NCBI GenBank assembly: GCA_963728565.1
Contig: CAVSLC010000028.1
Coordinates: forward strand, 64,001 to 128,000
Direction of reading: 5' to 3'
Origin: an uncultured delta proteobacterium
Lineage (GTDB): Bacteria; Desulfobacterota; Binatia; UBA9968
DNA length: 64,000 nt
Within the stretch, counting starts at the first letter, position 1. Each line of letters opens with the position of its first letter. The position numbers and the translations under genes were made by a program. This document shows positions 61,907-63,793 of the stretch, in pieces. The notes under the pieces are model-generated. The model saw nothing but the letters and a program-made list of their open reading frames with translations. It was not told the DNA's origin and searched no databases.

Positions 61907-62662
61907 ATGGAAGAAGCAAAGCAGATTGCCGAATGGCTTGACGCGCTCGACCGGCCCAACAAGCAGATGCTTCGCGTCGCGGTGGACGGTTTGATCGCGG
62001 CGTTGCCGGACTCACCTGAAACGGGCAAGAATCTACAGGACCTGCTGCGCGATTCACAGCGAGGAAATCGCTGGCCTATCGCCTATATCCTCGCCCACTT
62101 GCCTCAACCACCTGCCGAATCATTGGAGATCCTGCTCGATGCTCTTGACGATTCTGATCCAGACGTGCGCTGGGCCGTTATCTTACTCTTGGCACGCTTG
62201 ACGAAGCCAGAAACGACAGTGATGCAGCTGACGACATCGCTAATGGCCACCGGCACGCCGACCCAACGCCGCATGATCATCTATTATCTAAAAGAGTTGA
62301 AGCGTCAGAACGAAGCTGTTCGGCAGACGCTGTTATCCGCGCTCGACGATTCGGATCCCACAGTTAGAGTTGCGGCAGTGATCAGCTTGAAAGAACAGGA
62401 TGTGGATTCGGACGGCAAGACAACTTTATTGGACTTGCTGATGCGCGATCCTGATGTTCGGGTACAGCATGCGGCAGCGATCACCCTCGCAAGCTTAGGG
62501 TCACCGTCCGAAGAATTTTTATCGGTTCTGGATGATGCCACGAAAAATGCGCAGGGGCCGTTGAAGAAGGCTGCCGTCGCCGCGCAGCGTATCCTCCAGG
62601 AAAAAAAAGAGGTCCGTCCCATTAGGCGACTGACGTCGCCGGCGGGACGGACCCCGAGTTAA
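61907..62662 (+). CDS. HEAT-repeat protein
   Basis: ALDDSDPDVRW, ALDDSDPTVRVAA, DPDVRVQHAA repeats; C-terminus may be affected by the A8 run. Confidence 0.85.
   Translation: MEEAKQIAEWLDALDRPNKQMLRVAVDGLIAALPDSPETGKNLQDLLRDSQRGNRWPIAYILAHLPQPPAESLEILLDALDDSDPDVRWAVILLLARLTKPETTVMQLTTSLMATGTPTQRRMIIYYLKELKRQNEAVRQTLLSALDDSDPTVRVAAVISLKEQDVDSDGKTTLLDLLMRDPDVRVQHAAAITLASLGSPSEEFLSVLDDATKNAQGPLKKAAVAAQRILQEKKEVRPIRRLTSPAGRTPS
62601..62653 (-). terminator. Intrinsic terminator
   Basis: 10-bp stem GGTCCGTCCC/GGGACGGACC plus inner GGCGAC/GTCGCC, followed by U8 on the minus strand. Confidence 0.8.
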
Positions 62663-62728
62663 CTTCGGTAGACTGAGGGGGATTGCTAGGCTTCAAGCTA
62701 GAATCCCCGTCAAAGATCCACTTGAAGC

Positions 62729-62773
62729 CTAAGTCTCAGTCACCTCGCAGACAAAACAATTATCATCAATCAT
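62729..62773 (-). CDS. Putative 14-aa peptide MIDDNCFVCEVTET
   Basis: ATG at 62773 after the very long SD GAAAGGAGGTGGTCCAG; TAG at 62729-62731. Confidence 0.45.
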   Translation of the reverse strand: MIDDNCFVCEVTET

Positions 62774-62805
62774 GTCTGGACCACCTCCTTTCCCTGCTGA
62801 CTTTT

Positions 62806-62834
62806 AGTTTAAGGAGCAAGGTGTCGGCTGTCAA
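62806..62834 (-). promoter_or_regulatory. Consensus-like sigma70 promoter
   Basis: TTGACA (62834-62829) - 17 nt - TAAACT (62811-62806). Confidence 0.75.
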
Positions 62835-62894
62835 CAGGGAAGTGTCGCGTGCGGCCAATTTTCATACGCGGACAAATCGCGAAGCGATATAGAA

Positions 62895-63668
62895 CTATGC
62901 CGACTGCCAGCCGATGAAACTGATCTGGCGGCCGGTTTCTTTTTTTTCTCGTCGATATGAAAAAAATTCATCTTTGGCGCAACTGGTACACGGACCGACT
63001 CGAAAGATCTGGCTTTGAGGAATGCCGGCGCGATGCAGAATAGTTTTATTTAGATTACGTAAATGAAGGTAGTTCTTATTATCTCTGGTCTCGATTGAAG
63101 AAATCGCGAGTTCAGCCCATTGTTCGATCAACGGCTGCGCTACGTCACGACCGATTTCATAGCAACACGAGTCAATTGACGGTCCAAGGGCAACTTCCAG
63201 CTCCGAAGGCAACACGCCATAATTTTCCAGAAAGAATTTGACTGTCTTGCCGGCGATTCCTTTCAGGGTTCCGCGCCATCCGGCGTGAACGACAGCGACG
63301 ATCCTCTGTTCCCGAGCGAGGAAAAGCATAGGCACGCAATCTGCTGTTAGGACCCCAAGGAAAGTATTCTGCTCGCGCGTCGCCATCCCGTCGGCCTCGC
63401 CGGCTTCTTTGAGGTGTGCGTCTTTGACCTCGATCAGGCAATCGCCATGAACCTGCCTCATAGTGACGATACGGCCATCATGGATTCCAACAGCTAGCTT
63501 CATATCACAGACGTTCTGGCTGACGATCCCGGCATCGTCACCGACGCGGTACGAAACATTGAGCCCGGCATAAGCTCCGACGCTTTTCCCACCCTGCCGC
63601 CCTATAAAGCCGTGCAGTAAACCTGTGTCGTTTCCCCACTGCGGGACTTTCAACCAGTTGATTTTCAT
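62895..63668 (-). CDS. pgeF: Peptidoglycan editing factor / purine nucleoside phosphorylase YfiH family
   Basis: QVHG, EADG, TADCVP, HAGWRG, GPSIDSCCYE, FFSYRR. Confidence 0.94.
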   Translation of the reverse strand: MKINWLKVPQWGNDTGLLHGFIGRQGGKSVGAYAGLNVSYRVGDDAGIVSQNVCDMKLAVGIHDGRIVTMRQVHGDCLIEVKDAHLKEAGEADGMATREQNTFLGVLTADCVPMLFLAREQRIVAVVHAGWRGTLKGIAGKTVKFFLENYGVLPSELEVALGPSIDSCCYEIGRDVAQPLIEQWAELAISSIETRDNKNYLHLRNLNKTILHRAGIPQSQIFRVGPCTSCAKDEFFSYRREKKETGRQISFIGWQSA

Positions 63669-63793
63669 AGCCGGTATTATGTTTGGATCGTCCGCGCGAC
63701 GCAAGTCGATGGAAAAACTCCGGGCCGGTTATTCACTCTTGCATTGTGGCCCAATTTCGCCGAAATATACCCCCATAACTTCGGCAGTGCTAC

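Follow-up and report, generated by a model that had tools for sequence, protein, structure and literature searches.

Ms_IGR-5, filed in Rfam as RF02471 under the description "Actinobacteria sRNA", is a small RNA (sRNA) that was reportedly first described by Li et al. in RNA in 2013. In Streptomyces lividans, it was located by an Rfam scan and then validated by RNA-seq (PMC8079986), and in S. avermitilis two of the sRNA transcription units match Rfam, Ms_IGR-5 being one of them (PMC8780764). Furthermore, "significant ribosomal reads" were reported on Ms_IGR-5 in Mycobacterium abscessus and M. smegmatis (PMC4974804). The available parts of these three papers state no function, mini open reading frame (mini-ORF), complementarity to 16S rRNA, or non-actinobacterial occurrence of Ms_IGR-5. 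Here, an RNA element is described from a 64,000-nt stretch of an uncultured delta proteobacterium assigned to Binatia (GCA_963728565.1, contig CAVSLC010000028.1, positions 64,001 to 128,000 of the forward strand), which is called the window below. The element lies on the minus strand near the end of the window; its predicted transcript of about 199 nt covers 62601..62799, where the −10 box serves to place the 5′-end and the U-tract the 3′-end. An earlier note, made from the sequence alone, had presented it as a novel dual-function or ribosome-sequestering sRNA. The analysis given below suggests that it is a remote member of Ms_IGR-5, that its mini-ORF is selected as a reading frame and not for its peptide, and that its fold is switched by the transit of ribosomes; taken as a whole, we would place this statement slightly on the doubtful side of even.

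The Rfam scan that had been proposed as a check gave no 6S RNA match, and aligned the window element to RF02471 over model positions 1-184 with 21.4 bits (E = 0.059), below the gathering score of 45 bits. No Rfam match in the whole 64,000-nt window reaches its gathering score, and a search of the genome with RF02471 at its threshold gave no match, with the controls silent too. The relationship is carried by intermediates. When 20 other family copies, taken from a motif scan or from blastn in relatives, were scored on RF02471, those of Mycobacterium gave 189.5 and 188.5 bits, those of other Actinomycetota 165, 109, 72, 69, and 49 bits, and two Ignavibacteriales-type records and one delta-type record, all with non-actinobacterial titles, 54, 47.5, and 46.7 bits, which are above the cut-off. 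The remaining copies range from 41 down to 25 bits, the closest relatives of the window standing at 33-34 bits. In the opposite direction, a covariance model built from 29 window-type sequences only (R1) matched 97 of 100 loci at E ≤ 0.01, mycobacterial loci included. These intermediates and the reciprocal models support homology to Ms_IGR-5 despite the sub-threshold score of the window copy, and the element is very probably a remote, non-actinobacterial member of this family, not the founder of a new one as the earlier note had it. The two also resemble each other in layout: the model is aligned over its full length, and the boxes follow in the same order, i.e., ACAC/GCAG, AAGGAGGUGGUCC, UGYGAGGUGRCUG, UAG, AAUYCCC, CAGU..ACC, and a terminator hairpin, in a single-copy, stand-alone gene. 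They differ in that helix P2 is shorter in the window and that the Rfam structure lacks helices Pa and P1 as they are defined below. The host does not belong to Actinobacteria; among named records, the nearest (L068), whose peptide and R1 score are identical, is titled Candidatus Binatia. This does not exclude membership; judged from the members collected here, the name "Actinobacteria sRNA" and the Rfam model are too narrow. A copy of the mycobacterial type (165 bits on RF02471) also stands under the title of a gammaproteobacterial metagenome-assembled genome (L061, G486); this genome shares its phylum sample with the Mycolicibacterium genome, and its title or binning looks wrong.

Within the order of the window's genome, the element is nearly ubiquitous. 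blastn with a 271-nt query found one match in each of 56 out of 61 genomes from three families, and another match split over two contig ends brings the number to 57 of 61 (the unpublished genomes G012 and G018 are included in these counts); among the genomes that are at least 90% complete, all of the 37 have a match. The Shine-Dalgarno (SD) box, the stems, and the ORF are kept in these relatives, which is the conservation on which the earlier note had made its claim depend. A motif scan of species-representative genomes gave at least 119 loci, whose titles name Mycobacterium, other Actinomycetota, Candidatus Binatia, Syntrophobacter(ales), Ignavibacteriales, Zixibacteria, Blastocatellia, and Leptospira. 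A second model, R2, built from a 97-sequence alignment and used at E ≤ 0.001, matched 68 of 151 genomes of Actinomycetota (including five unpublished genomes) and 5 of 151 in the phylum of the window, the latter including G000 and one match (G155) that looks false. In three further samples of 41 genomes each, 18 genomes were positive in the order to which the Leptospira genome belongs, 7 in the class represented by the Ignavibacteriales genome, and 12 in that represented by the Blastocatellia genome. Since the stricter filters applied above 40 genomes drop weak matches, these counts are lower bounds, and in the genomes negative for R2 the element is to be taken as not found among those searched, not as absent. 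Nearly all of the positive genomes carry exactly one copy. The doubtful match in G155 (L199, G155:C9:158521-158780; 27 bits with R2) has a AAAGGAGGTGATCCAG box without the rest of the element and is probably a false match or a gene with a very long SD.

The element is equipped with its own transcription signals. A sigma-70-type promoter, TTGACA-N17-TAAACT (62806..62834, minus strand), agrees with the consensus at 10 of 12 positions and is the sole promoter-like site in 62400-63000 (shuffle mean, 0.3). The −35 and −10 hexamers (TTGACA and TAAACT-like) align in those relatives whose upstream flank is present, including loci with a different upstream gene; because promoter and RNA persist though the upstream gene varies, the element is not simply a 3′ untranslated region. 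At the other end, a compound GC-rich terminator hairpin followed by U8 (62601..62655, minus strand) is formed in the minimum free energy (MFE) fold by a stem between 62655-62643 and 62621-62609, with T8 at 62608-62601. A simple terminator scan gave no site at the element because this hairpin is compound. In a MAFFT alignment of 30 loci, the terminator arms differ in sequence among relatives while their complementarity is retained, and the −35 and −10 boxes, the SD box, the ORF, and the stems are all in register. The MFE of a 206-nt stretch is −86 kcal/mol, compared with −63.5 ± 4.5 kcal/mol for shuffled sequences (z = −5.0; none of 200 shuffles is as good). Thus, the promoter, the terminator with U8, and the self-contained unit described in the earlier note all stand, the last being supported by the conservation of both signals in relatives. 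As far as sequence can tell, the element is a real, self-contained, stand-alone sRNA gene of about 200 nt; it is under strong selection, and a promoter and a terminator of its own give it the independent transcript of a dual-function sRNA.

Near the 5′-end, the transcript carries an extended SD box, GAAAGGAGGTGGTCCAG (62776..62792, minus strand). The 16S gene of the same genome, retrieved with its rRNA operon, ends with ...CTGCGGCTGGATCACCTCCTTTCT, so that the box is complementary to the 3′ tail of the host's own 16S rRNA over 17 nt with one G:U pair; the earlier note had read 16 nt, also with one G:U. The core of the box, AAGGAGGTGGTC, is unchanged in all of the 29 aligned relatives and is also kept across phyla. 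In the 4.5-Mb genome, there are 10 sites with at most one mismatch from the 13-mer 16S tail sequence, two of them being the 16S gene and this element.

Behind the box, a mini-ORF of 14 codons plus a stop codon, MIDDNCFVCEVTET, extends from an ATG at 62773 to a TAG at 62729 (62729..62773, minus strand), as previously read, and a small ORF is conserved at this place in other copies. The motif scan supplied 111 unique segments. Of these, 109 have, in frame 0, a start codon located 3-14 nt behind GGAGGTG from which the frame is open as far as the TGY codon; such a start is present in 51 segments for frame +1 and never for frame +2. The stop is placed exactly six codons after the TGY codon, i.e., five codons after Glu-Val, in 110 out of 110. 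This set is constrained by the search motif, and matches found by the model only were examined as well. On the side of Leptospira, Ignavibacteria, and Blastocatellia, in 18 of 18 model-found matches an SD precedes a start codon in frame, and the ORF comprises 10-16 codons and closes with E-V-x-x-x-stop. Among 20 others, 16 from Actinomycetota and four from the window's phylum (L182 in this set is from an unpublished genome), 18 have an SD, a start, and an ORF ending in the same way; the two exceptions are L193, whose SD is GGGGG and whose ORF was read by eye, and L199, which lacks the element. TAG, TAA, and TGA are all used as stop codons among family members. A termination specific to release factor 1 was considered, as the motif-found set has only TAG and TAA, and was rejected on the TGA codons in model-found matches. 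That the stop keeps its position with three different stop codons is the chief argument against a chance openness of the frame.

The sequence of the peptide is, on the other hand, nearly free. Its N-terminal half varies in length and sequence, and no codon besides GAG GUG for Glu-Val is conserved in the mini-ORF. These two codons, which show no synonymous change among the 29 relatives, are at the same time the junction of helices Pa and P1 and a part of the P1 arm. The residue preceding Glu-Val is C in 9, L in 7, S in 4, R in 4, G in 2, and T, E, and P in one each of 29 distinct peptides (the tally script mis-registered L175, L176, and L180, which have two AGGTG in a row). The codon for this residue forms the 3′ arm of Pa and varies in step with the 5′ arm. 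Accordingly, a conservation of the peptide in relatives, which the earlier note had looked for, is limited to Glu-Val, whose codons belong to RNA helices, and the pattern indicates that selection retains the ORF as an ORF, that is, its start, frame, and stop position, and not the peptide.

The helices concerned were predicted by RNAalifold from the 29 window-type sequences. Pa (GCAG:CUGC) encloses the SD and the start codon and is formed between GCAG at the extreme 5′-end of the RNA (62794..62797) and CTGC (62747..62750), which contains the last Cys codon. P1 (GGUGRCUGAG:CUCAG.YYACC) is formed between GGTGACTGAG (62735..62744), within the ORF at the codons for Val-Thr-Glu, and CTCAGTCTACC (62667..62677), which resembles the anti-SD tail of 16S rRNA; variants of the P1 arm are present in other phyla. 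P2 consists of 13 pairs from the stop codon, the arms in the window being TAGGCTTCAAG (62721..62731), which starts with the stop codon, and CTTGAAGCCTA (62687..62697). All of these arms are on the minus strand. Two stems of the earlier note are preserved here: GACTGAG/CTCAGTC is part of P1 (62744-62735 with 62677-62667), and the 11-bp stem corresponds to P2 (62731-62721 with 62697-62687). A third, CAGACA/TGTCTG, exists in the sequence but overlaps the better-supported Pa and is mismatched in relatives reading GACTG; it is not conserved and was rejected. In the 97-sequence alignment (A2), 94.0% of cells are paired, compared with 27.5-38.4% when the partners are slid by 1-3 columns, and 313 cells have double changes, compared with 22-47 in the slid controls and a shuffle mean of 118. 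Compensatory changes are found in 13 of 13 pairs of P2, 3 of 10 pairs of P1, and 2 of 4 pairs of Pa. Because this alignment is fitted to the model, Pa was additionally read from the raw sequence at fixed offsets. In 142 unique sequences, picked by a pattern that requires the stop at its usual place, Pa is fully paired at these positions in 128, compared with 67 when the partners are permuted. At least 11 complementary combinations of the arms occur, for example, CACA:UGUG, GCAG:CUGC, CCAG:CUGG, CGCA:UGCG, CACG:CGUG, and CACU:AGUG, as well as ACUG:CAGU, CACC:GGUG, CAGG:CCUG, and CUUC:GAAG. Thus, Pa, P1, and P2, as aligned, are helices that covary.

Inside the loop closed by Pa, there is a small hairpin, P0, in which GGUCC at the 3′-end of the SD box pairs with a GGAC that immediately precedes the Pa 3′ arm, and copies with A for G in the box (GAUCC) carry U for C on the opposite side, as read by eye without a formal count. 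The loop displays 8-9 nt of free SD, and P0 contains the start codon and GUCC, by which the SD is extended in the 3′ direction. The P1 3′ arm (..CCACC..) resembles the anti-SD of 16S rRNA, and in folds of relatives it alternatively pairs with the SD box. In L010, L013, and L019, the bulged base of this arm is A, and the SD box is fully complementary to the arm over 8 nt (AGGUGGUC with GACCACCU); the MFE fold of L013 uses the AGGUGGUC:GACCACCU pairing. A pairing of the SD with the 3′ arm of the terminator, which the earlier note had suggested, appears in one MFE fold of the window copy and is absent from the folds of relatives, and is likewise not conserved.

There is a second pairing in the 3′ domain. 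In the window, GGGGATTC in the loop of P2 (62701..62708, minus strand) is complementary to a conserved box, AATCCCC, that separates P2 from the P1 3′ arm (62678..62684, minus strand) and is the partner of GGGGATT, and the strand in the loop would be the 5′ strand of an alternative hairpin or a pseudoknot. The strands that can pair here are GGGGAUUC, which belongs to the P2 loop, and GAAUCCCC, which is situated between P2 and the 3′ arm of P1; the 3′ box AAUYCC..CAG..ACC is found in 125 of 149 extracts, and other phyla have, at the same places, UUGGGG with CCCAA or GGAAU with AUUCC. In the window's group, 91.6% of cells are paired in this alternative. The two competing pairings of the earlier note in the 3′ domain are thereby supported, one of them being that of 62708-62701 with 62684-62678. 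The conservation support for the alternative hairpin is real but modest. When 29 nt were masked as a ribosome footprint with the A site on the stop codon, the MFE fold gave the alternative hairpin in all of four diverse copies. Two of these came from records of Mycobacterium and Ignavibacteriales, the other two being the window's own copy and that of a relative. That P2 and the AAUCCC box form a compact H-type pseudoknot was regarded as sterically doubtful, by reasoning and not by computation; as the two strands flank the P2 3′ arm with linkers of 1-3 nt across a P2 of 11-16 bp, the pairing is expected, likewise by reasoning, mostly as an alternative hairpin when P2 is open. Eight actinobacterial loci (L046, L057, L073, L089, L119, L120, L131, and L142) share a common peptide and a 3′ arm GCGCAUCACC without the AAUYCC box, and are a structural variant of the 3′ domain. 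In L050 (a Saccharopolyspora rosea record, around 401-470), the SD, ORF, and stop are intact, and unrelated sequence replaces the 3′ domain from about 20 nt past the stop, which could be due to an insertion or rearrangement.

Evidence for transcription and ribosome association comes from the literature on the actinobacterial homologues, as far as the available parts of the papers quoted above report it. For the window element itself, six RNA-library runs contain about one third of the words of an 801-nt query, and soil metatranscriptome contigs of four runs from four studies cover the element at 90-99% identity. A contig of run X19 starts exactly at 62655, the first base of the 5′ arm of the terminator, joined to an adapter-like loose end; a fragment may have ended there at the hairpin, which contigs do not allow to be interpreted. 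The peptide is absent from six supplementary files of PMC4633059, and literature searches gave no match for the peptide strings or for locus-style names of mycobacterial sRNAs; a broader one likewise turned up nothing specific. As far as these searches reach, the multi-phylum spread, helices Pa and P1, and a position-conserved mini-ORF passing through the helices from a near-maximal SD are not in print.

These features are best combined, in our view, in a ribosome-gated switch. The exposed and very long SD in the Pa-closed loop would capture a 30S subunit, and the SD:16S helix, extending into GUCC, would open P0 and free the start codon. To translate the mini-ORF, a ribosome would then have to open Pa and P1, followed at the stop codon by the P2 5′ arm. 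The 3′ arms of P2 and P1 would be released, the alternative hairpin of GGGGAUUC with GAAUCCCC could form, and the anti-SD-like P1 3′ arm (CCACC) would be able to pair with the SD box. As this arm mimics the anti-SD and pairs with the SD in the MFE folds of some relatives, translation could be self-limiting. The RNA would in this manner toggle between an untranslated and a just-translated fold, and a role in trans, such as binding of a partner, decay, or occupancy of 30S subunits, would be coupled to ribosome availability; an interaction may take place at the conserved AAUCCC box or at the SD box. Taken by itself, the switch mechanism is a tentative proposal, which we hold to be somewhat more doubtful than sound. 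The exceptional SD, the conserved small ORF, and the competing pairings of the earlier note are supported, and its dual-function or ribosome-engaging sRNA is in the right neighborhood.

Several points weigh against the ribosome-gated switch. The ORF is so short that its openness could partly be due to chance, and the pair counts from the model-fitted A2 alignment lean toward structure. In the window's group, double changes are confined to two pairs of the alternative hairpin and, for each pair, to one sequence; across phyla, the longest complementary run averages 5.66, compared with 4.59 in shuffles, and only 50 of 104 sequences reach a run of at least 6. The proposed pairing of the SD with the P1 3′ arm is beyond covariation testing since the SD box is invariant. 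The RNA-library contigs run into both flanking genes and therefore show neither transcript ends nor strand, and they were not counted as evidence of an independent transcript; footprints of ribosomes on structured RNAs may be artifacts. The gene neighborhood is not conserved across phyla and hence gives no functional clue.

Among other explanations, an untranslated decoy comes first. The RNA might be a mimic of an initiation region that holds 30S subunits, or free or immature 3′ tails of 16S rRNA, by an SD:anti-SD helix of 13-17 nt, its ORF being incidental or serving to clear ribosomes. The exceptional complementarity to the host's own 16S tail, of which the genome has so few other near-copies, would suit this role, as would the invariance of the SD box across phyla and the fact that CC2171, an otherwise unrelated-looking sRNA (see below), begins with the same kind of box. 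A decoy, however, needs neither an in-frame start nor a fixed stop, yet both are kept with three stop codons in use; a single-copy gene without evidence of very high abundance makes a weak sponge; and the GUCC part of the box is paired in P0, where its G/A changes together with the partner (by eye). We consider a decoy unlikely.

Still less likely is a cis-antisense regulator, in which the RNA or read-through of its terminator acts on the overlapping convergent gene. In the window, this is a HEAT-repeat gene (61907..62662, plus strand), which spans the terminator with an overlap of 62 nt at its 3′-end, confirming the antisense overlap described in the earlier note. HEAT_2 matches are found in the downstream fragment of most loci examined in the window's family, and in most of them the convergent HEAT gene stays beside the RNA despite a differing upstream gene. 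The upstream gene in the window encodes a Cu-oxidase_4 (PgeF/YfiH-like) protein (62895..63704, minus strand); it is usually Cu-oxidase_4 in other loci as well, and elsewhere an aminotransferase (Aminotran_4), an MFS transporter, TatD, OCD, or GFA. In two actinobacterial orders (L156, a Mycolicibacterium septicum record, and L157, an Actinocorallia record), the adjoining convergent gene is that of a haem-binding, nitrobindin-like THAP4_heme-bd protein, which could be a target of the same kind. The downstream gene is convergent in the window, in most relatives, and in three of five loci from other phyla. On the other side, neighbors differ between phyla, the Leptospira, Blastocatellia, and Ignavibacteriales loci having others, and in the Leptospira and Blastocatellia loci the downstream gene is on the same strand; moreover, it is the 5′ and middle domains that are conserved, whereas the overlapping terminator varies freely. 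Near the RNA at L156 and L157 there is also a GCV_T-family gene, and genes for a rhodanese and a DUF1416 protein are slightly farther away in the mycobacterial locus. A link to purine metabolism, based on pgeF here, purD in the Blastocatellia locus, and purM near the mycobacterial locus, was considered and is unsupported, since both the genes and their adjacency differ.

The next two explanations, both very improbable, place the function in the codons. In one of them, the locus is a plain small-protein gene whose product is the peptide of 11-16 residues, including the metal- or redox-sensing CxxC micropeptide of the earlier note, and the RNA structure merely stabilizes the mRNA. The ORF is conserved, and CxxC or extra Cys residues do recur, in the Binatia type, in some of the Streptosporangiales type, and in Leptospira; CxxC is, however, present in some lineages only. 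Where the last Cys is lost, L, S, R, G, T, E, or P takes its place and Pa shows compensatory changes, and for this reason both the CxxC/redox peptide and a Cys-sensing attenuator were rejected. The small-protein gene also has against it that Glu-Val, the only conserved residues, are encoded by the Pa/P1 junction and P1 arm in a GAGGTG that never changes synonymously in the 29 relatives, and that the N-terminal half is variable. In the other, a leader-like sensor of an amino acid such as cysteine, a stall before Glu-Val would decide between termination and read-through. Polycysteine leader ORFs exist in mycobacteria, the mini-ORF here is located 5′ of alternative pairings and a terminator, and Cys codons are frequent in some lineages. 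Nevertheless, the codon before Glu-Val, where the stall would occur, is not kept, most loci lack a downstream gene in the same orientation, and no conserved anti-terminator pairing was found. Finally, a type I toxin mRNA or a 6S-like binder of RNA polymerase, both named in the earlier note, can be set aside as the least probable of all, since the general look of a small ORF in a structured RNA with strongly negative folding energy is all that recalls them, whereas the peptides, e.g., MIDDNCFVCEVTET, are acidic or polar and variable with no toxin-antitoxin partner found, no 6S match appears even at E ≤ 1, and the RNAalifold consensus is a branched multi-helix domain and not a rod with a central bubble.

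If the ribosome-gated switch is true, RF02471, filed as an actinobacterial sRNA, would be a widespread single-copy structured RNA with a spread comparable to that of other, much-noticed orphan RNAs. Its design would be unusual in that a conserved mini-ORF with free sequence starts from one of the longest natural SD:anti-SD matches and that its translation must unfold covarying helices, and the question would be raised whether bacteria have a dedicated RNA for sensing or buffering ribosome availability. For annotation, the "CxxC peptide" would have to be regarded as arising as a by-product from an RNA helix.

Rfam scans of the window element and of the family copies gave no match, even below threshold, besides Ms_IGR-5 and CC2171 (RF01867), an sRNA of Caulobacter and other alphaproteobacteria that is expressed and, in the available part of the source, of unknown function (bioRxiv 10.1101/2022.01.24.477521). 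The consensus of CC2171 opens with ..ACA..GAAAGGAGGUGAUCCAG and, like the window element, has a multi-helix domain, a long-range closing helix, and a terminator. It differs in that only the 5′ box aligns and that the GAGGUG/P1 box is not in the consensus, with which, in place of a real copy, the comparison was made. The CC2171 model gives 15.2 bits at the window element (62611-62800) and 22-25 bits on L031, L125, and L154, its gathering score being 75, and it matched none of 151 genomes in a sample that is actinobacterial, not alphaproteobacterial. CC2171 and Ms_IGR-5 may form a wider superfamily or may have converged, which is only a lead. It is conceivable, if rather unlikely, that RNAs of the Ms_IGR-5 type are an ancient, multi-phylum "ribosome-gated" class, perhaps with CC2171 as a further branch: loaded through a near-maximal SD, ribosomes would read 10-16 codons through the core helices to a stop at the P1/P2 junction, and with every ribosome that passes, the RNA would change over between two conserved folds; in one of these, the SD would be covered by an anti-SD mimic within the RNA, so that free, translation-competent 30S subunits are read or buffered.

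Two kinds of known systems are close to such an RNA. SgrS/SgrT and SR1/SR1P are dual-function sRNAs, which combine with a folded RNA a translated ORF. A similar arrangement is found in liberated leader RNAs such as rnTrpL/peTrpL of Sinorhizobium (PMC6614838), a small terminator-ended transcript with a folded RNA and a translated ORF of about 14 codons. In these systems, the peptide or a base-pairing seed has a defined role, and the ORF stands beside the functional RNA domain. In the window element, in contrast, the ORF runs through the conserved helices themselves with a free sequence, and there is no downstream operon. The other system is tmRNA, a structured, near-universal, single-copy RNA with pseudoknot-like elements, in which a mini-ORF of 10-20 codons is read by the ribosome. 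ARAGORN found no tRNA-like or tmRNA gene in 62400-63000, and the tmRNA models of Rfam gave no match. The window element differs from tmRNA in that it has no tRNA-like domain and that its ORF is provided with its own SD and ATG start.

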